IMG/VR virus record: IMGVR_UViG_3300031949_000029
Location: 420 to 64,419 of that record
Direction: 5' to 3' (one strand)
DNA: 64,000 nucleotides
Source: a virus
The notes under the pieces: model-generated
Database searches by the model: none
Told to the model about the DNA's origin: nothing
What the model saw: the letters and a program-made list of their open reading frames with translations, nothing else
In this document: positions 11,357 to 48,269 of the stretch, one piece after another
Layout: each line of letters starts with the position of its first letter
How positions within the stretch are numbered: position 1 is the first letter of the stretch
Translations under genes and position numbers: made by a program

Positions 11357-11625
11357 AGGGTGGGAGCGTCGTCAAGCTCCCTCGATACGGCTGGTTCCGG
11401 ATCCAGCAGCACCTTACGCCCTGCTATTTATGGACTGTTGACTAGACAGCCGCTGCGGGGATAGCTCCCCCTAGGGCCGGTATCCTCCCTTTAGAAGAGG
11501 GGGCATGTGGGGGGTATCCTACCCACAGTTAAGGCCATGCTTAGCCAGGCCCCCCGAAGGACTCGAACCTTCATCTCCGGCAGGCTCACTAGGTGCCCAG
11601 CAACGTTCTGGGTTCTAGAAAGCTT
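11357..11625 (-). ncRNA. Circularly permuted tRNA-like RNA (Yrl-like or two-piece tmRNA-like)
   Basis: Order: anticodon-stem strand GCCGG, T-arm GAAGG-TTCGAGT-CCTTC, GGGGGGC, 44-nt insert, GCCCCC, D-arm TTCT-AAAGGG-AGGA, CCGGC. Confidence 0.6.
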
Positions 11626-11631
11626 TCTGTT

Positions 11632-12320: not shown

Positions 12321-12321
12321 G

Positions 12322-12690
12322 TGGAGCCGGGACTTGCTGGTACTGCACGTGTCTTGATCGTCCCAGCAGTAGCCCGGCATGGAACCCCACGCACCGGGTA
12401 AGTCCAAGTGGTTAGCCAGTGCTTACCAACACCAGGCCACCTGGCGGTACGTGGGGGTGCGGCGGTACTGCCCGGCGAGCCTCTCCTGTCACCCAGAGAG
12501 CAGTGGGGGCCTTGAGGACTTGTTCCAGTCTATCTAGGGCGTCAACCGCCCATCCTCGTCATCCTCTGGATCTCGGCCATCGAGCCGGAGTTGCACCGGC
12601 ATGCCCAGGGGAGCGACCTTGCTGGGCAGCGGACAGAGCATGACCGTCGAGGGTCGAAGCTCCCTTCGAACCCCTCGACATGCCCTGTCA
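12322..12690 (-). ncRNA. Candidate large structured ncRNA ending in TCCA
   Basis: Several long helices, a T-loop-like hairpin, and a terminal GCCGGG/CCCGGC-T-CCA; no credible ORF. Confidence 0.6.
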
Positions 12691-12695
12691 TTTCT

Positions 12696-12770
12696 TGGAG
12701 CTGCGGAGTGGCTTCGAACCACTGTCTGCGCCGTACCAGGACGCTGCTCTTCCCATTGAGCTACCACAGC
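12696..12770 (-). tRNA. tRNA-Thr(GGT)
   Basis: Loop CT-GGT-AC; CCA. Confidence 0.9.
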
Positions 12771-12774
12771 AGTC

Positions 12775-12848
12775 TGGAGCGAGTGAGCGGACTCGAACCG
12801 CCGTCATCAGCTTGGAAGGCTGAGGCCCTACCATTGGACGACACTCGC
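12775..12848 (-). tRNA. tRNA-Gly(TCC)
   Basis: Loop CT-TCC-AA; U73-CCA. Confidence 0.93.
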
Positions 12849-12850
12849 TC

Positions 12851-12960
12851 TGTGGTGGCCAGACTCGACACTGGCTGTCCCGGCTGCGGGCTATGCGTGT
12901 AGAATATCTACACGATCCGCGACATGTCCCGCACCGCGTGTCCTTCCACGCCGCACCACA
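12851..12960 (-). ncRNA. tRNA-shaped RNA with an enlarged, branched anticodon domain
   Basis: Acceptor TGTGGTG/CACCACA; D-arm GCGTG-GAAGGA-CACGC; T-arm GCCAG-TGTCGAGT-CTGGC. Confidence 0.65.
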
Positions 12961-12970
12961 TTCGATCTAT

Positions 12971-13267
12971 GCCCTCAGTCCCTCAGTCCATCCATAACCC
13001 TACTGAGGACGACCAGGGTCCGCGCTCTGCGAGTGGATGGTCTCGCCAAAGCCGGTTGGGTGGAGGCCCTTAATGGGGACCGGCGGCTCCCCTACGCTTG
13101 TCGGGAGATTGGAGCGTGACTCTCCCATTGAGGGCTCAAGCGGAAGCCCTATCTATGGGGCGGTGGAGGGTAGAGAGAGCAGGTGTCACGTGTGCCGTAT
13201 ACCGGACGCTGCAGCGGCGGGCTGGCGGTGACACTGCATCTGCTCTGTTATTCCCCCCGGTGCCCCC
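12971..13267 (-). ncRNA. Candidate multi-pseudoknot ncRNA
   Basis: 5' long hairpin domain plus four H-type pseudoknot-compatible pairings (see finding). Confidence 0.65.
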
Positions 13268-13342
13268 TGGAGCGTGGAAGGGGATTCGAACCCCCGTCTC
13301 GGCCTTGGCAAGGCCGTGTGCTACCGGCTGCACCATCCGCGC
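13268..13342 (-). tRNA. tRNA-Gly(GCC)
   Basis: Loop TT-GCC-AA; U73-CCA. Confidence 0.92.
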
Positions 13343-13343
13343 A

Positions 13344-13414
13344 TGGAGGTAGAGCTTGAGAAGGGGAAGGGCTAGCCCACCACCGGCCCTGCGAAATTCT
13401 CTCCCTGCTCCACC
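13344..13414 (-). ncRNA. Rod-like hairpin RNA ending in TCCA
   Basis: GGTGGAGC/GCTCTACC-T-CCA; fills the slot between two tRNAs. Confidence 0.6.
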
Positions 13415-13417
13415 GTA

Positions 13418-13492
13418 TGGTAGCCCTGTCGGGATTCAAACCCGAGTCACATGGCTGAGAACCATGCATGCTAATCGCTGCACCACAGGGCC
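13418..13492 (-). tRNA. tRNA-Glu(CTC)
   Basis: Loop TT-CTC-AG; CCA. Confidence 0.88.
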
Positions 13493-13494
13493 AT

Positions 13495-13560
13495 TGGTGC
13501 TCGGGTTGCGTACCGAGCCCCCGTCTACGCTATGAAAAAATCATGCGGTCGGCGGGACGA
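13495..13560 (-). ncRNA. Two-hairpin RNA ending in an ACCA minihelix
   Basis: GCTCGG-TACGCAAC-CCGAGC-A-CCA preceded by a CCCGCC/GACGGG hairpin; 5' end uncertain. Confidence 0.5.
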
Positions 13561-13747: not shown

Positions 13748-14407
13748 CTATGCCTGTCCTTTGTCTTCGGTGCCTGGGTCCTTAGGGTTCATGGTGATAC
13801 GCTGCAATGCTGAATAAGCCATGTGCACAGGGTCACCAGTGGCCCTAGTAGCTCCAATGTTGGCCGACAAGATGTCTATACTGGGTTTGACCGTAGCCGC
13901 GGTGTAGACAGCAGCTTGTTGCTTGGCAATTCCCAGTCCACCCGCTTCAGCAAAAGCATCCACGTTGGCTCCCAGATAGGTGAACTGCCAGCTGTAAACA
14001 TCACGCTGATGACTGATCATCTGAGCAACCTGGGCCCTGTTGTAGCGCGTGCTGGCGTTTTCCTGGCCATCAGTGATGATGATGAAGATGACTAGCTGGG
14101 GGCGCTGATCCTCAGGGGTGTTGCTCAAACGGCTGCCTACGCTATCGATGGTACGGCCGACAGCGTCCAGAAGGGCGGTCATGCCTCGAGGTTCTAGCCT
14201 GATTTCCGAGACTTCCTGGATCGGCTTGCTGCTAAACACCAACTCATAGATGTCGTCGAACTGGACGAGGGTCAGGTGGCATTCACCAGGAAGCTGCTGC
14301 TGATCAGCAGTGAGAGCCCTGAGGCCCCCTTCCATGTCTAAGCGGCAGCTTGACATCGAGCCGGAGCGGTCCAGCACGACAACTAGCTCAGTAAGGTTCT
14401 GCTTCAT
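13748..14407 (-). CDS. von Willebrand factor A (vWA) domain protein
   Basis: MIDAS motifs VVVLDRSGSM, GMTALLDA and IITDGQEN. Confidence 0.88.
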   Translation of the reverse strand: MKQNLTELVVVLDRSGSMSSCRLDMEGGLRALTADQQQLPGECHLTLVQFDDIYELVFSSKPIQEVSEIRLEPRGMTALLDAVGRTIDSVGSRLSNTPEDQRPQLVIFIIITDGQENASTRYNRAQVAQMISHQRDVYSWQFTYLGANVDAFAEAGGLGIAKQQAAVYTAATVKPSIDILSANIGATRATGDPVHMAYSALQRITMNPKDPGTEDKGQA

Positions 14408-15194: not shown

Positions 15195-15398
15195 TTATCT
15201 CCAGCTCTCTGGCCAATCTAGATCGAGCCAGACGATAGTAAGAGCACAGGTCAAGCCTACCGCGACTGCCAGTGGAATCTGGACGCTCATGGAAGTGTCT
15301 TTGAAGAGAGATCCCAGGAGGGCACATATGGGAATGCAGATTGCGCTGCCAATTGACCACTGCCGCCATAACCGCCGCCAGCCATCATCATCTAGCAC
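15195..15398 (-). CDS. Small membrane protein
   Basis: Two hydrophobic helices; overlaps the end of the polymerase gene. Confidence 0.4.
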   Translation of the reverse strand: MLDDDGWRRLWRQWSIGSAICIPICALLGSLFKDTSMSVQIPLAVAVGLTCALTIVWLDLDWPESWR

Positions 15399-18300
15399 GC
15401 AATCTCCTCCATTTCTCCCCAGTTAGCTCCTAGCTTGGCGGCCACACCGATTTGTAGGTGTGTACCTAGCTTGGCTAGCTCCCCCACCATTGGCTGCTCC
15501 TCGATCGGCCTGGTCATGGCATTGACAACCTTGGCCAGCACCTTGTCGACTTCGCTCTTGTAGATCTCCAGCAACACCGAATCATGAACTAGGGCTCTGA
15601 ATGGTGTGACCTGGCCTTCCTGTAGAATACAGTTCTCCATGTCCAGGTCAGTCAGCTCCAGACAGCTCTCGTACAAGACACCAGCTGCAGTACTCTGTGG
15701 ATAGTAAGCAATACAGGACTTAGCATCAGCTCCTAGTGTCCATTCGCCGCGCTGTCCATCCCACTGATAAACTTCCCAGAACCAATGCTTGTAGTGGAAT
15801 GGATGGTCAGCTCCCCCCAAATACCCCATCTTCCAAGCCCGATCGCGCAGGGCCTGGTGCCAGGCAGGAAGCTTAGGGCATAGCTCGAACAGCAGCTTCT
15901 GGTTAGCCTCTGCACTAGCTACTGTAGGGAACAGCTCCGGGTAAGTCTTGTGGAGTCCTAGAGCGGTCATCCCATAGAGAGTATTCCCAGTGACGCTGAT
16001 CCGGTTCCTATGGCGTGTTAAGAAGTAGCTAGATGGGACGGTAACACAGTAGACAGGTCCGTCCCAAGGGACCAGCGTCTTGATAAGACAGCAAACCCGA
16101 GCTAGTTTTCGCTTGTTAAATGACAGCTTGTACAGAGGTAGCCTCTTACCTTCCCTTAGGTGCATCTGGAGTAGCGCCTGTATCCCTGCCAGATGTGCCA
16201 GTGTCTGTATCGCCTCTGCATTGGATTTGTTGGTCGTCATGTACCAGGACTGCTTACCATGTCGGTGTCCATCCCAGAAGGTGGTTTCATCGACTAAGGC
16301 ACGTTTCTGGCTGGCTGTCAGGACTAGCAGCTTATCCAGTACAAAAGTTTTGTCAGGCTCAGCTAGATAAGCCAGAGCCCTTGGTATGGAAGCTTTGCTA
16401 ATTCTGTAGTAAGTCCTGCCTGGGTAGTCTGGATATTCTCGTTTGGTGAAATCAGCGTGACAGGTCTGGAGAAGCAGCTCTAACCGCTTCTTCTTTCTAG
16501 ACCTCTTCAGACAGAAGCGCACTTTCTTTCTACTGAGATGACCATCTGCCTGGATTGCGGCAGCCAACTGTGGATAGACACCATCCTCAACGGGGCCTTG
16601 AAGTATGCCATTTATTGGAATCCGATCATGCTTCTTTAATGTGTCAGCCGTACGCTCTACAAGGACATTGTTAGTGATGGTAGCTAGTCTATGCCAAGGA
16701 GTCATCGTAGCTGACAAGCCACGACCTTCTAACCTGATCATCTCCCCTTGCCAGTCACGGTTGGTTATCCTAGAAGGTACGACAAACTCGATAGCCCCGT
16801 TAGACCATTGTGCCACCTGTGTTCCAGTCTGTAGCTGGTCCAAGCGCACCCAGCCCTGTGGCGTTAAAACCTCATGTGCGCCTGATAGGCATCCATAAAT
16901 CGTGCGCTTAGACTTATCTCGCTGAGCCCCAGCCCTTGCCTTAATCGCCTTCAATGCTTGTCTTAGCTCATCGTCCCCCCAGCCAGCGTCAACCCGCTCC
17001 CCCAGCACGTGTCCAGCGTGGTAATCGTGGATACCAAGCTTGGCTAGCCGAACGAAATCTGGGTCACCTAGGAACCAGCCAGTCTCTACAGCTTCGATTG
17101 CACTAAAATCGACCTCCAGCAGAACCATCCCAGGTCCTGCCACCAGTGCCCTTCTGAACTTGCTCTCCTTGTCGACATTCTGAAGGTTCGGGTTGACACA
17201 GCTGAGCCGCATTGTAGAGGGCCCATGGGTGAAAGTCGGGTGGAGTCTGCCATCTGCCCCCAGCCGCCTCTCGGTCCCTTCTACATAGGTTCCCAGGACC
17301 TTATCAACACGTCGGTAGTCTAGAACTAGCGGATACAACGGGTCCTTAGTGGTCTTGGCTAGCCTGGCTAGTGTTTGCTCATCAGTGCTATCCCTAGCTG
17401 TCTTCTTGGCCCTCCCAGGCTTATGTCTCTTATGCTTGATGTAGTTAAGTAGCTGATCTGGGCTGCCCAGATTGAATGGAAGCTGCCTATGATATCTGCT
17501 GGTCTGCTGCGACTCCTTCACTACCTTGGGCTTAAGCTCCTTACTGATTTTTCCTTTCTCATCCTTACAGCGGTGGGTCTTAGTTACATTCACTTCTCTA
17601 CATGTCAGGCATAGCTGGATCTCGACAAGCTCCAGCTTTTCTACGATCCCAGCCTCGCCAGCTGGTCTACGCGCTAGTGACGGCCCAAGAGGTTTTAGTG
17701 CTTCGTCAACTAGGTTCTGGGCCTTAGCAACCAGTACCAGCTTCTCACTAGCCAGTTCTTGACGGTAAGCAGCAAGCCCAGCTTTGTCCACCCCCAAGCC
17801 AGCGTCTTCGGCTGGCTTGAGCACTTGACTATCCAAGCAGTAAACATGGCGTTGGAAGGCTTCCCACTGACCTCCAGCTTGGAGGTCTCTAGTGATACCA
17901 AAAGCGCATCGCAGTGTCTGCACTGCGTCCACAGCAGCGTAGCGCCCAGGGTCAGTCCCGGATAAATGCTTCCAAGGTCCGTAGTCAGAGTAGAATGGCG
18001 CCACGAATCCAAGGCCGCGTGGTAGGTCTGATTGAAGCACGTGCCAGGCCCACATGAAATCAAGCACTCTCCCTGTGGAGGCGAAACCGGCTGCTCGTAG
18101 CCTTGGGATATCGTAACTAGCGTTCCAGTAACACTGAACTCCTTGGTGTCCAAGAAGTCTCCTAATTATCGCCAAATACTGGCCAGACCAAGGGACTGTC
18201 ACCCCCTGATCTGGGTGGTAAGCAAAGTTGATCCTGATGATCTCGCCGAAATCATCTGCTAGCTCATCTTCGGCCTGCCCAAGAATCTTGTCCTGGGTCT

Positions 18301-18964
18301 CAATGTCAACAGCAAGCCAGCAGTCTTCAGTGATCCTAGTGGCCCACTGCTCGAACCAGGACGGGCTGGGGTCTACTACCAGACTAGTCGGTGCCGGCCT
18401 AGGGTCACGTCCCCCGGCCACTTCAATCGCTTGCTTCAAATCCCAGCAGACCACTCCACTCAGCTTCTTGTTGCCTCTTAGTAGGTAAGCTGGGTGGAAG
18501 CTGGGTACTACCCAGAAGCGACCATGAGGTTCCAGTACCGGCTGGCCATGCCAGTTCTGCTGCTTGTGTCCTTTGCGGGGAAGTCCTAGAAGCTGGCGAG
18601 TGGCAGAACCTCCCAGGGCCACCACCGCTCTCCTGCCTTCACCTAAGGTCTTATCCAGATACTGCCTGCAGGTGGCCAGTGCTTGGTGTTCCCAAGGGGC
18701 GCCATCTAGCCAATCATTGGGTGGCTGACAGCGTACACAGTTGTCTACCCTGACTGCTGCCCGATCGAGGCCAACTTTGGTCAGTAAGCGGTTGAGCAAT
18801 TCTCCGCTAGGACCGACAAAAGGCTGGCCAGCCAAAGCCTCAGAGCGTCCTAGCGCCTCTCCTACAATCGCTAGCTCAGCTTGTACTGGACCTGAAGCTG
18901 GGGCATAACCTAGACCCCTGTCAAACAATACGCATCCGGCACATGTCGACGGCTTCTGAAGCAC
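15392..18964 (-). CDS. polA: Family A DNA polymerase with N-terminal family-4 uracil-DNA glycosylase, 3'-5' exonuclease and an intein
   Basis: UDG: CAGC, IVGEALG..E...PFVGPSG, FHPAYLLR. Exo: AVDIET, NASYD. Pol: RLSCVNPNLQN, EVDFSAIE, KRTIYG, VHDSV. Confidence 0.93.
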   Translation of the reverse strand: MLQKPSTCAGCVLFDRGLGYAPASGPVQAELAIVGEALGRSEALAGQPFVGPSGELLNRLLTKVGLDRAAVRVDNCVRCQPPNDWLDGAPWEHQALATCRQYLDKTLGEGRRAVVALGGSATRQLLGLPRKGHKQQNWHGQPVLEPHGRFWVVPSFHPAYLLRGNKKLSGVVCWDLKQAIEVAGGRDPRPAPTSLVVDPSPSWFEQWATRITEDCWLAVDIETQDKILGQAEDELADDFGEIIRINFAYHPDQGVTVPWSGQYLAIIRRLLGHQGVQCYWNASYDIPRLRAAGFASTGRVLDFMWAWHVLQSDLPRGLGFVAPFYSDYGPWKHLSGTDPGRYAAVDAVQTLRCAFGITRDLQAGGQWEAFQRHVYCLDSQVLKPAEDAGLGVDKAGLAAYRQELASEKLVLVAKAQNLVDEALKPLGPSLARRPAGEAGIVEKLELVEIQLCLTCREVNVTKTHRCKDEKGKISKELKPKVVKESQQTSRYHRQLPFNLGSPDQLLNYIKHKRHKPGRAKKTARDSTDEQTLARLAKTTKDPLYPLVLDYRRVDKVLGTYVEGTERRLGADGRLHPTFTHGPSTMRLSCVNPNLQNVDKESKFRRALVAGPGMVLLEVDFSAIEAVETGWFLGDPDFVRLAKLGIHDYHAGHVLGERVDAGWGDDELRQALKAIKARAGAQRDKSKRTIYGCLSGAHEVLTPQGWVRLDQLQTGTQVAQWSNGAIEFVVPSRITNRDWQGEMIRLEGRGLSATMTPWHRLATITNNVLVERTADTLKKHDRIPINGILQGPVEDGVYPQLAAAIQADGHLSRKKVRFCLKRSRKKKRLELLLQTCHADFTKREYPDYPGRTYYRISKASIPRALAYLAEPDKTFVLDKLLVLTASQKRALVDETTFWDGHRHGKQSWYMTTNKSNAEAIQTLAHLAGIQALLQMHLREGKRLPLYKLSFNKRKLARVCCLIKTLVPWDGPVYCVTVPSSYFLTRHRNRISVTGNTLYGMTALGLHKTYPELFPTVASAEANQKLLFELCPKLPAWHQALRDRAWKMGYLGGADHPFHYKHWFWEVYQWDGQRGEWTLGADAKSCIAYYPQSTAAGVLYESCLELTDLDMENCILQEGQVTPFRALVHDSVLLEIYKSEVDKVLAKVVNAMTRPIEEQPMVGELAKLGTHLQIGVAAKLGANWGEMEEIAC
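15983..16891 (-). mobile_element. Intein (303 aa) with LAGLIDADG-type endonuclease, in PolA motif B
   Basis: Begins CLSGAHEVLTPQGW, ends SVTGN with Thr at +1; AIQADG and TFWDG blocks; excision restores KRTIYG-TLYGM. Confidence 0.88.
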
Positions 18965-29919: not shown

Positions 29920-30116
29920 CAGCTTGTCTCCTCAGGCGCTTTGTACTGATCTAGATGGTCCAGTGCCTTCCAGACCACAGAACGTACCCAAGAACTGCTA
30001 TGTTGCCCTAGGATGCTAAAGGCCCTGATACAGTGAAGCAGTACAGGATCCGGTGTGCTGTCCTCTAGCTGCTGGGCCAACCGCTGCACCTGGGCAGCCA
30101 AATGGCTAGGTGTCAT
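29919..30116 (-). CDS. Hypothetical protein
   Basis: 65 aa; overlapping starts and stops. Confidence 0.4.
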   Translation of the reverse strand: MTPSHLAAQVQRLAQQLEDSTPDPVLLHCIRAFSILGQHSSSWVRSVVWKALDHLDQYKAPEETS

Positions 30117-30748
30117 CGGACTTCCATGGCCTGCCTCGCGAGGGAGAGCAAGTCAAGTGTGTAATTACTTTTCCTAGCCTTCACCACCGCCGCCTTCACC
30201 ACCGCCGCGGCAGCCCACGCCGCCGCCGCCACGGCATCGCCTGCCGCGTGGGCTGCGGCAGCCCACGCCGCCGCCCACGCTGCCACCCTGGCCGCCGTCG
30301 CCGGCCTGGCTGCCAGCGCCCCAGCTGCCGATCTGTCTGTACCAGCAAGCCAGTCGTCGGCCCAACGCTGCCACGTCTTATCCCGCCAGACTTCCTTGGC
30401 AACTAGGATTCCATAGGCGGTTGTGTTCACCGGCGACAATTTCGGCAACTCAATCATGCGTACCGTAGTCAAGGTCTTCGCTCCCGACTTGAGTTGTCCC
30501 TCATGCTTTACCACTTCCCCGACCAGCACCTCCCATCCCAAAGGCTTTAAGTAGTTTGCGTGGATTGGGTTGTGCAGCACCGCGAGCAGAGGATCAGCAT
30601 AGTAGTGTATCCAGCCACTTGTGCAAAGCGGTAGCTCCCCAGGCTCGGCGGTATGCGTGACTCCCTCGCCCCATAGCAGCCCGCCGTAGCTCTTGTGGTC
30701 CTGATCAGTCAACTTGCAGAGCATCGTTACCTCCTCCAGGGTTTGCAC
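30113..30748 (-). CDS. Phage protein with Ala/Trp-rich repeats
   Basis: CTSGWIH N-terminal domain and AAWAAAWAAAA repeats. Confidence 0.6.
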   Translation of the reverse strand: MQTLEEVTMLCKLTDQDHKSYGGLLWGEGVTHTAEPGELPLCTSGWIHYYADPLLAVLHNPIHANYLKPLGWEVLVGEVVKHEGQLKSGAKTLTTVRMIELPKLSPVNTTAYGILVAKEVWRDKTWQRWADDWLAGTDRSAAGALAARPATAARVAAWAAAWAAAAHAAGDAVAAAAWAAAAVVKAAVVKARKSNYTLDLLSLARQAMEVR

Positions 30749-32531: not shown

Positions 32532-32864
32532 CTACTTCGCGCGGCTGGCCAGCGCGGCGACGGCCTTGACCACGCTCGGCTCCACGATGCTGATGTAGGC
32601 GTCGAGAGCGATGCTGCGCCACTTGTCGGGACCGTCGAAGACGATGAACAGCCGGCCGTTGTCACCGGCTTGCAGCTTGACCGCGACGGTCTTGGTCGAT
32701 CCCTCGTGCTGCATCGGGATGGACGTGGAGCCGTCCTCCACGTCGTGGTAGGCGCCCTTGCGCCCGGCCCGGCCCTTGGGCGCGGCCGTCACGCCGCCAC
32801 CCTGGAGCGCCTTGGCCAACTCGGCCAACTGCAGGAGACCTGCCAACGGGTTGTTGCTTCCCAT
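32532..32864 (-). CDS. Hypothetical protein
   Basis: 110 aa; GC-rich codon usage. Confidence 0.55.
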   Translation of the reverse strand: MGSNNPLAGLLQLAELAKALQGGGVTAAPKGRAGRKGAYHDVEDGSTSIPMQHEGSTKTVAVKLQAGDNGRLFIVFDGPDKWRSIALDAYISIVEPSVVKAVAALASRAK

Positions 32865-33129
32865 CTTACCCTCTTACCGGAACCGTGTCGGCCCCATGCC
32901 GGCATCGCCCGGGTTTCCTACACTGCGTAGGTATCTCGGGCATCGCGCCCGAATACGAGAGGACAGCGCGTGGGCTCATCCCATGCGCACCCAGGCTGTG
33001 CCATAGGCCCCCATCCCATGATGCGCGGATAGGCTGCGAGGTCGAATGACTACGAGGTCAGTTGGGATCAGATCAGAGCGGCTACAAGCCGGGCATTATG
33101 CCTAGATGACATAACATTTCTTATCGGAC

Positions 33130-46990: not shown

Positions 46991-47341
46991 GTGGTGGGCT
47001 ATTGGTTGCTCTCTGTCCTCGATAAGATTGCAGCCAGCCTAGTTATTGCGGCACTGGGTGCTGTTCTAAAGTTCATTCATGGCTACCTGACTCGGCAAGC
47101 TCGGCTGGAGCAGAGTCTAGTGAAACTTGCCGATCTGTTCAGACGCCAAGCTGATATGCAGCATCGGCTAGCGTATCAGTTGAGAACTACTAGAGAGCAC
47201 TTCGGATTAGAAAGTGTAGGAATCCGAGACGTAGAGCGTGACATTAGACCCCTGCGCAATGTATTCTGGGCACCAGCACAAAGTAATGTGGCTGAGAACA
47301 GAGGAACCCCAGTGCCGGAGCGTATCCTCGATGGAGTCTAA
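46991..47341 (+). CDS. Putative holin-like membrane protein
   Basis: N-terminal TM segment then coiled coil. Confidence 0.35.
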   Translation: MVGYWLLSVLDKIAASLVIAALGAVLKFIHGYLTRQARLEQSLVKLADLFRRQADMQHRLAYQLRTTREHFGLESVGIRDVERDIRPLRNVFWAPAQSNVAENRGTPVPERILDGV

Positions 47342-47344
47342 GGG

Positions 47345-47635
47345 ATGGGTACAGAAGAGCCTAGCTGTAATGGCGCCATGCGAAAAGAGCTGGACTCTTT
47401 GCATAAGCGTGTCGAAGAGATCTACGAGCAGCTGAATGACAGGGTAGACCGCGTGGAAGCTAAAGTGGTTGATGTAGCGTCGGCGGTACGCGATTTGGTG
47501 GACAATGTAATCCAGGTCCAGATCGTGCTTCCAATGCTTCACCAGGGCAGACAGCTGACGAAGCTGACTGAACTTGTAGAGGGGTTGGATAATCGGCTTG
47601 ATGTGGTGTTGAGACGCGAGGATCTCCATGACTAG
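47345..47635 (+). CDS. Coiled-coil hypothetical protein
   Basis: Heptad pattern. Confidence 0.4.
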   Translation: MGTEEPSCNGAMRKELDSLHKRVEEIYEQLNDRVDRVEAKVVDVASAVRDLVDNVIQVQIVLPMLHQGRQLTKLTELVEGLDNRLDVVLRREDLHD

Positions 47636-48269
47636 CCCTGGCCGGGTGAGCCTACTGCTAGCTTTGATGTCTTTATATTCCTGCTTACTAGTGTTCGGAG
47701 GGGAAGCTATAGATATCTTTACGGTCCAGCTAAGCACCACTGGTGACTTCTGTCATGCCTGCCCCGTGGGGCCAAGAGAAGCATTAACAGCTTTACACTG
47801 TGTATCTCGGCGTGTAGATAGTGGTGACCGCCTGTTCTATAGCACGACCTGGTCCATGCTAGGCGGGTCAGCTGGATCAGCTATACCAATAGCATTCGAC
47901 ACGCGCAGGGATCTAGCGGTGCTGAAGTCTGATACAGACTTTGGTGGCTGGAACAGGCTGGCTCAGAAACAGCCGGTGGTAGGAGACCGGGTGTCGGTGG
48001 GTAGCTATCTCTGGGACAAGTGGATGAAGCCTGTGTTGGTCTGGACCACACTCAAGACAGTGATAGCAGGGAACCTGGTGTATGACAAGAATCCAGGTGG
48101 GGGATCATCTGGTAGCTGTGTGTTTGCCGAGAGCGGCGAGGTAATCGGGATCAACTATGGCTGGGTCGAGCCTACTGAAGGTAAGCCTATTGGGCTTGGG
48201 AACGCGGTGACACCCCCATGGTTTCCGATTCCTACACGCTACGTGATTGAGCTGGAGTGGAAGCAGTGA
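47628..48269 (+). CDS. Secreted trypsin-like serine protease
   Basis: Signal-like N-terminus; ALTALHCV, RDLAVLK, GGGSSGSCVF. Confidence 0.78.
   Translation: MTSPGRVSLLLALMSLYSCLLVFGGEAIDIFTVQLSTTGDFCHACPVGPREALTALHCVSRRVDSGDRLFYSTTWSMLGGSAGSAIPIAFDTRRDLAVLKSDTDFGGWNRLAQKQPVVGDRVSVGSYLWDKWMKPVLVWTTLKTVIAGNLVYDKNPGGGSSGSCVFAESGEVIGINYGWVEPTEGKPIGLGNAVTPPWFPIPTRYVIELEWKQ

Follow-up and report, generated by a model that had tools for sequence, protein, structure and literature searches.

A G+C-rich non-coding insert with pseudoknot-compatible pairings between two glycine tRNA genes of a soil phage

A 419-nt gap in a phage tRNA array

We analysed a 64,000-nt stretch of DNA (hereafter the window) that makes up nearly the whole of a 64,976-bp IMG/VR virus record from a soil metagenome, 88% complete according to CheckV. 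The source is an uncultivated soil phage. ARAGORN identified 32 tRNA genes between 4495 and 14611, all on the minus strand, and a sigma-70-like consensus match is located just upstream of the first tRNA of this array. The array neighbours a UDG-PolA polymerase gene (15392-18964, minus strand), which encodes 1190 aa compared with about 860-1000 aa in most relatives; since its best BLAST alignments cover only about 58%, an inserted segment is suggested. An intein-splicing Pfam match was also seen in the product of one relative. Within the array, two glycine tRNA genes are separated by a gap of 419 nt (12849-13267), the first 297 nt of which (12971-13267) are the element investigated here. The gap and its flanks contain the following features.

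13268-13342, minus strand: tRNA-Gly(GCC) with encoded CCA, the upstream flank of the gap (ARAGORN; Rfam tRNA model, 63.7 bits)
12851-12960, minus strand: tRNA-shaped cloverleaf that completes the gap (MFE fold)
12775-12848, minus strand: tRNA-Gly(UCC), the downstream flank of the gap (ARAGORN and Rfam)

The first-pass annotation had placed a non-coding RNA of about 300 nt immediately after the CCA of tRNA-Gly(GCC). The start was correctly placed, as the CCA ends at 13268 and the G at 13267 comes next. The 297-nt boundary at the other side proved arbitrary, because the gap runs on for 122 nt into the tRNA-shaped cloverleaf, which ends it just before tRNA-Gly(UCC). The spacing to the flanking tRNAs is 0 and 2 nt, and no promoter-like or terminator-like site was found within the gap. 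The G+C content of the element is 64%, compared with 56% for the genome; at 0.64 it ranks among the top 5% of windows of 300 nt and comes near the mean of the tRNA genes, 0.615. Among the 20 spacers of the array, the element and the Thr-Lys spacer have the highest G+C. Long-range pairing between these two was not above shuffles (P 0.27), and a search for internal duplication in the window found none.

The region had further been described as lacking any ORF with a ribosome-binding site that would explain it, which agrees with our analysis: no coding signature and no credible ORF were found. G+C by codon position is 0.63/0.62/0.63 in the element, whichever frame is read, versus 0.62/0.44/0.55 in the polymerase gene, and four other genes show a periodicity like that of the polymerase gene. 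The presence of a 42-aa ORF on the minus strand and of 64-84 aa ORFs on the plus strand could point to a gene for a small protein, intact or decayed, on one strand or the other. We consider it very unlikely in view of the missing codon-position periodicity. Furthermore, the 42-aa ORF, the longest minus-strand ORF wholly inside the gap, is not preceded by a Shine-Dalgarno match, and six-frame tblastn of the element against 27 related loci gave nothing below E 0.1. The gap 12849-13267 is non-coding.

Predicted pairings and their frequency by chance

Every pairing listed for the element in the first-pass annotation, including four pseudoknot-compatible ones, is present in the sequence of the minus strand. 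They fall into six parts, all on that strand.

13156-13267, minus strand: 5' rod with helices of 5, 6, 7 and 7 bp and a small three-way tip (MFE -50.2 kcal/mol)
13131-13150, minus strand: AGGGCT/AGCCCT hairpin of 6 bp with an 8-nt loop (hairpin count and MFE fold)
13094-13127, minus strand: PK1 candidate, stem of 6-7 bp and 12-nt loop (hairpin 13102-13127)
13051-13092, minus strand: PK2 candidate, 5-bp stem GGGGA/TCCCC (hairpin 13075-13092)
12988-13046, minus strand: PK3 candidate, 5-bp stem GCGAG/CTCGC (hairpin 13029-13046)
12973-13020, minus strand: PK4 candidate, 6-bp stem with one G-U pair (hairpin 12996-13020)

The four helices at the 5' side belong to a single imperfect hairpin of 112 nt (13156-13267), and the MFE fold contains the same structure. 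Downstream of it, each candidate pseudoknot combines a hairpin with a complement to its loop. The PK1 loop sequence ACGCT is complementary to AGCGT at 13094-13098, with 4 loop bases between the pairing strand and the stem. In PK2, the loop sequence GCCGG adjoins the 3' stem strand and has its complement CCGGC at 13051-13055. The PK3 loop sequence CCATCCA is complementary to TGGATGG at 12988-12994; 6 of these 7 pairs were recovered by a second-layer fold of the 185-nt stretch (-4.6 kcal/mol, P 0.025). For PK4, CCTCAGT in the loop is complementary to ACTGAGG at 12981-12987, of which a tandem second copy lies at 12973-12979. Read from the sequence, the junction between the loop strand and the 3' stem strand is 0 nt in PK2, PK3 and PK4 and 4 nt in PK1, so that three of the four candidates (PK2, PK3 and PK4) are laid out like classic H-type knots.

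The candidates PK3 and PK4 are interlocked: the downstream partner of PK3 sits in the third loop of PK4, and the two thus cannot both be simple H-type knots. In their predicted form, they must either compete or need a more complex knot. ViennaRNA drew the PK4 loop pairing as an ordinary extended hairpin, which leaves UGGAUGG in a loop from which it could kiss the PK3 loop. The interlock and the alternative PK4 hairpin together make the fold ambiguous even on paper.

We compared these structures with dinucleotide-shuffled sequence and with the rest of the window. For nested MFE, the 297 nt gave z -1.27 on the minus strand, with 17/200 shuffles as good, and z -1.75 on the plus strand; the z of the 419-nt gap was -1.20. 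The rod was more stable than any shuffle (z -2.92, 0/200 as stable), and values of z <= -2.9 were reached by 2.2% of 1142 non-overlapping 112-nt windows on both strands, so the rod is good and not exceptional. The pseudoknot stretch alone gave z -0.6 to 0. As a crude pseudoknot-aware proxy, a two-layer fold was used, in which the unpaired bases of the MFE structure are folded a second time. Its total z was -0.9 for the 297 nt, -1.15 for the 185-nt stretch and -2.4 for the 419-nt gap.

Loop-to-downstream pairing was assessed by counting hairpins whose loop has a complement of at least 5 nt within 60 nt downstream, a statistic designed after the claim was seen and hence post hoc. The element contains 7, versus 2.5 in 1000 dinucleotide shuffles (P 0.019), an excess of about three-fold, and it holds 2 loop complements of at least 7 nt (P 0.017 versus shuffles). 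This count places the element in the top 0.6-0.7% of all 297-nt windows on both strands and makes it the third-best region, behind 30000-30500 and 32700-33000. The pairings are therefore enriched over dinucleotide shuffles, a comparison proposed in the first-pass annotation, but they do not stand out from the genomic background, in which two regions score higher. We regard the excess of pairing and folding as modest; the test was post hoc, its outcome varies with the boundaries chosen, and a pairing excess of this size can be met in a 64-kb scan.

The two regions with the highest counts of loop-to-downstream complements in the window both score on the minus strand. Region 30000-30500 overlaps an ORF (30113-30748), and its part 30241-30352 is 77% G+C. 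The most structured non-tRNA 112-nt window in the scan, with z -5.75, was 47489-47600 on the plus strand, located at the overlap of two opposed ORFs (47207-47740, minus; 47628-48269, plus).

The cloverleaf at the end of the gap (12851-12960) has a perfect 7-bp acceptor stem, a D-like arm and a T-like arm with an 8-nt loop, and it has no CCA. At the anticodon position it carries a long arm with a 37-nt hairpin insert. The 122-nt stretch containing it (12849-12970) gave z -2.52, with 2/200 shuffles as stable. ARAGORN made no call on it even with introns allowed, and Rfam gave no match at E up to 10. From its predicted fold, the cloverleaf resembles a tRNA gene that has ceased to be recognisable to tRNA detectors.

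In a related phage contig (L074, 12577-12709), a comparable RNA with a 67-nt insert in the anticodon loop is still scored as a tRNA. The surrounding region of that contig (12500-14760) contains a full Ro60 ortholog of 544 aa, with TROVE and Ro60-type vWA domains, between tRNA-Met genes. Three features lie upstream of this gene: the insert-bearing tRNA, a YrlA match of low score (27 bits, E 0.0055), and some 270 nt that terminate in a T-arm and ACCA. The region may be a phage Ro/Y-RNA module. The array in the window has a stand-alone vWA gene (13748-14407) only, with no TROVE gene. The gap resembles Y RNAs (YrlA, with Ro60/Rsr) in that tRNA-like modules are fused to stems. The Ro60 ortholog and tRNA-like RNAs occur together in L074, whereas no TROVE/Ro60 match was found in the 64,976-bp record (88% complete) and the YrlA model did not match the element.

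Known RNA families and related phages

The first-pass annotation had been unable to assign the element to a known family, and the Rfam covariance models bear this out. At gathering score, Rfam 15 found only tRNAs in the whole window. At E up to 10, no match above 17 bits fell within 12849-13267 when 12700-13500 was searched with families including GOLLD, ROOL, the tmRNA forms, HDV-like, hammerhead and twister ribozymes, 6S, RNase P and YrlA.

Two kinds of known RNA were examined further. Theta ribozymes are minimal HDV-like ribozymes that occur mostly in gut phages and have their cleavage-site G at the 3' ends of phage tRNAs (PMC10879173). The first base of the element is likewise a G adjoining the 3' end of a phage tRNA, as G13267 follows the CCA, and its serial candidate pseudoknots and nearby tRNA-like module are reminiscent of tmRNA. 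A rescue RNA of the tmRNA kind is nonetheless highly improbable, as is a self-cleaving HDV-like theta ribozyme generating the tRNA-Gly(GCC) 3' end. We ran a permissive HDV-like descriptor (P1 6-7 bp, P3 3 bp, L3 5-10 nt, J1/2 up to 30 nt) at all 32 tRNA 3' ends; within 5 nt either side of the tRNA-Gly(GCC) end it gave 0 matches, and thus no P1/P3/P1.1/P2 fold. The nested double pseudoknot of theta ribozymes, with the catalytic C at the start of J4/2, was not found in the element. Furthermore, theta ribozymes are 50-70 nt long and lie mostly after tRNAs without an encoded CCA (PMC10879173).

In tmRNA, an acceptor/T-arm frame encloses the knots, whereas the 5' end of the element pairs within the rod and not with the 3' end. 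Three-frame translation revealed no tag with a resume codon and a hydrophobic degradation end, and the sole candidate ends in GRPQ. At default thresholds, ARAGORN found no tmRNA in the window, and with introns and relaxed thresholds it found no extra tRNA. A permuted tmRNA with a 31-aa tag ending in GRPQ was printed at 80% thresholds only; we consider this call an artefact, assembled from arms that belong to the two real Gly tRNA genes.

We also compared the array with those of related phages. The UDG-PolA gene has hundreds of relatives, the best with 58% identity. Four of them (L022, L025, L026 and L075) have arrays downstream of the same gene with largely the same tRNA order, and the nearest relatives have a polymerase identity of 48-58%. 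The order of genes around the glycine tRNAs, with spacers in nt, is given below.

Window: Tyr - 135 - Glu(CUC) - 75 - Gly(GCC) - 419 - Gly(UCC) - 4 - Thr
L022: Gly(GCC) - 28 - Gly(UCC) - 297 - Thr
L026: Gly(GCC) - Tyr - Gly(UCC) - 4 - Thr
L025: Tyr - 109 - Gly(UCC) - ORFs - Thr, with no Gly(GCC) gene
L075: Tyr - 227 - Gly(UCC) - 0 - Thr, the 227 nt being unrelated to the element

At the syntenic position, the element is absent from all four relatives. Their spacers showed no likeness to it by local alignment, nhmmer, tblastn or covariance models of the rod and the hairpin chain. When all spacers were compared against each other, the best z of the element was 1.2, the lowest of the 20 window spacers, whereas 8 of the 20 reached z of at least 5 to some relative's spacer, four of these being short and non-coding. 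Since these eight spacers are alignable, conservation is detectable at this distance, and the element does not show it. On the other hand, a polymerase identity of only 48-58% means that absence from these relatives leaves room for a young functional RNA. The Gly(UCC)-Thr spacer of L022 was considered as a counterpart on account of its identical length of 297 nt and was rejected, as it has no similarity to the element in sequence or predicted fold.

Several other spacers of the array were found to share blocks with relatives. The neighbouring G+C-rich Thr-Lys spacer is somewhat conserved, unlike the element: the window (12321-12695) and L022 (14086-14297) have a 25-nt block in common (alignment z 5), which contains a T-loop-like hairpin with the stem GCCGG/CCGGC. 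A T-arm-like block, AGGTTCGAnTCCT with flanks, is common to the Asp-Ala spacers of the window (11357-11631), L022 (15562-15812) and L025; in this slot of L022, ARAGORN calls a tmRNA with a tag ending in PAAVV. After tRNA-Tyr, the 13-nt motif CTTTGACAACTGA occurs in the window (about 13540-13560, minus strand), in L022 (13505-13517) and in L075 (8443-8455), and the alignment of these spacers across the three genomes has z 7.6. The motif contains TTGACA and could, judged by its letters, be the -35 box of an internal promoter or a processing signal. The Glu(CUC)-Gly(GCC) spacer (13343-13417, minus strand; 75 nt) forms a tRNA-sized hairpin, has CTCCA as the last five bases before a 2-nt gap, and reaches z 5.0 to a spacer of L075.

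Wider searches for homologues of the element were likewise negative. Neither blastn in distant mode against 50,697 phage records, nor a search of IMG/VR with five element-derived patterns and a tRNA-Gly(UCC) anchor, nor a search of JGI metagenomes with two patterns gave a match. No homologue was found by nhmmer (--max, filters off) against all fetched loci, and nhmmer, six-frame tblastn and single-sequence covariance models detected nothing similar in 17 sources; the models of the rod (R1) and of the hairpin chain (R2) found only themselves. Because the nearest named homologues of the array's vWA gene are in Gemmatimonadota and Planctomycetota, 401 genomes of each (802 sampled) were searched by BLAST, which returned only chance matches of 20-40 nt. 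The Gemmatimonadota sample includes one unpublished genome, G160, which contributes to this negative tally only. No variants were seen in the run from which the record derives, and a second soil run had only tRNA pieces in common with the window.

Interpretation of the insert

Non-tRNA RNAs encoded among tRNA genes have precedents. RNAC and RNAD lie in the tRNA cluster of phage T4. These RNAs (species 1 and 2) are non-tRNA RNAs among phage tRNA genes with unknown function (PMC9697503). The element is like them in being non-tRNA, encoded among phage tRNA genes and, as we envisage it, released with them. They are stable transcripts conserved in T4-like phages, whereas the element is a putative RNA that had no homologue in our searches; it also has no sequence similarity to RNAC or RNAD, as no match was obtained in the phage records. 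GOLLD and ROOL are phage and prophage RNAs with many pseudoknots that are often found near tRNA islands (PMC12286853). With a length of 500-800 nt or more, both are widely conserved and represented by Rfam models, whereas the element comprises 300-420 nt and was matched by neither model at E up to 10.

A further parallel is one of layout. The 3' ends of tobamoviruses, which are located in the 3' UTR of a eukaryotic plus-strand RNA virus, consist of an upstream pseudoknot domain followed by a tRNA-like structure that is aminoacylated. The gap has the same order of serial pseudoknots, here candidates, and a tRNA-shaped domain. This is an analogy of layout only, and the cloverleaf of the gap, unlike the tobamovirus end, is without CCA and lies inside the tRNA array of a DNA phage.

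We put the chances at about even that the element is a lineage-specific passenger spacer without selected pseudoknots. The four loop-to-downstream pairings are best read as real complementarities that are the occasional product of a 64% G+C stretch of this length and have not been selected. The 419-nt G+C-rich non-coding insert, carried by this phage lineage only, would be co-transcribed in the long precursor of the 32-tRNA array. It would probably be released by host RNase P at the 5' end of tRNA-Gly(UCC) and by 3'-end enzymes at tRNA-Gly(GCC). Once freed, it would fold locally into the 112-nt rod, several small hairpins and the tRNA-shaped cloverleaf and would then be degraded, presumably with no sequence-specific job. 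Its origin is probably array turnover, and captured or decayed tRNA-like DNA is a possible source because the adjacent cloverleaf suggests so. Several observations argue against a passenger spacer. A drifting spacer in a 56% G+C phage is not expected to keep a value of 0.64, which could reflect selection for structure or else a recent origin by capture of G+C-rich DNA. In addition, hardly any shuffle matches the stability of the rod or of the cloverleaf, the loop-to-downstream pairings are enriched (P about 0.02), the two-layer fold of the 419-nt gap has a total z of -2.4, and the tight abutment to the tRNAs is like that of processed stable RNAs in phage tRNA clusters.

The same observations speak for a structured RNA that is genuine and specific to this lineage, about 300-410 nt long and released by RNase P and 3'-end enzymes, which we regard as possible but clearly less probable than a passenger spacer. 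In it, the rod would be followed by serial pseudoknots, H-type or kissing, and then by a tRNA-like 3' domain; the stable product would act, for example, as a tRNA mimic or decoy or as a nuclease-resistant scaffold. The G+C content at the level of tRNA, the stability of the rod (z -2.9) and the cloverleaf (z -2.5), the pairing excess, the two-layer result and the exact abutment to tRNA ends are all consistent with such an RNA, as are the H-type geometry read for PK2-PK4 and the precedent of RNAC/RNAD (PMC9697503) and GOLLD/ROOL (PMC12286853) in phage tRNA clusters. It is weakened by the lack of a homologue in any collection searched, by the absence of a copy from four syntenic relatives despite the conservation of other spacers, and by an element-wide MFE that is not significant. 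Moreover, the pseudoknot part alone does not exceed shuffles (z -0.6 to 0), the pairing statistic is post hoc and exceeded by other regions of the window, and PK3 and PK4 exclude each other as simple H-type knots. We think it unlikely that all 419 nt of the gap make up a single phage RNA, cut from the array by the enzymes that process tRNAs, in which the rod and a chain of pseudoknots (H-type or kissing) would precede a tRNA-shaped 3' domain lacking CCA.

Long imperfect intergenic hairpins are RNase III sites in the early transcripts of phage T7 and in rRNA operons. The rod could by analogy be the only functional part, a hairpin for double-strand-specific (RNase III-type) processing or for insulation at which the precursor is split after tRNA-Gly(GCC), with the rest being spacer. 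It is the sole part of the 297 nt that is clearly better than shuffles, and its stacked pairs, about 25 in number and interrupted by internal loops, make up a long imperfect helix exactly at the tRNA boundary. We nevertheless judge this quite unlikely: an equal z is found in 2.2% of arbitrary 112-nt windows, with the rod covariance model, neither the relatives nor other parts of the window yielded a counterpart, and tRNA arrays need no such site for processing.

Taken together, the non-coding insert itself is real, and we found no sign that selection maintains the four candidate pseudoknots. The case is cautionary: in a G+C-rich spacer, loop pairings found by hand, four of them here, do not suffice as evidence, even together with an attractive rod and a start exactly at a tRNA end. 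Alone among the spacers of the array, the element left no trace in relatives. If the 419-nt RNA were true, it would be the equivalent, in a bacterial virus, of those plant RNA virus ends that combine pseudoknots with a tRNA-like structure or, alternatively, a tag-less tmRNA-like scaffold, young and confined to a single phage lineage. The functions of non-tRNA RNAs in phage tRNA clusters are largely unknown, and if the fold is real, the insert would be a new multi-pseudoknot RNA with a tRNA-like end among the few such RNAs.
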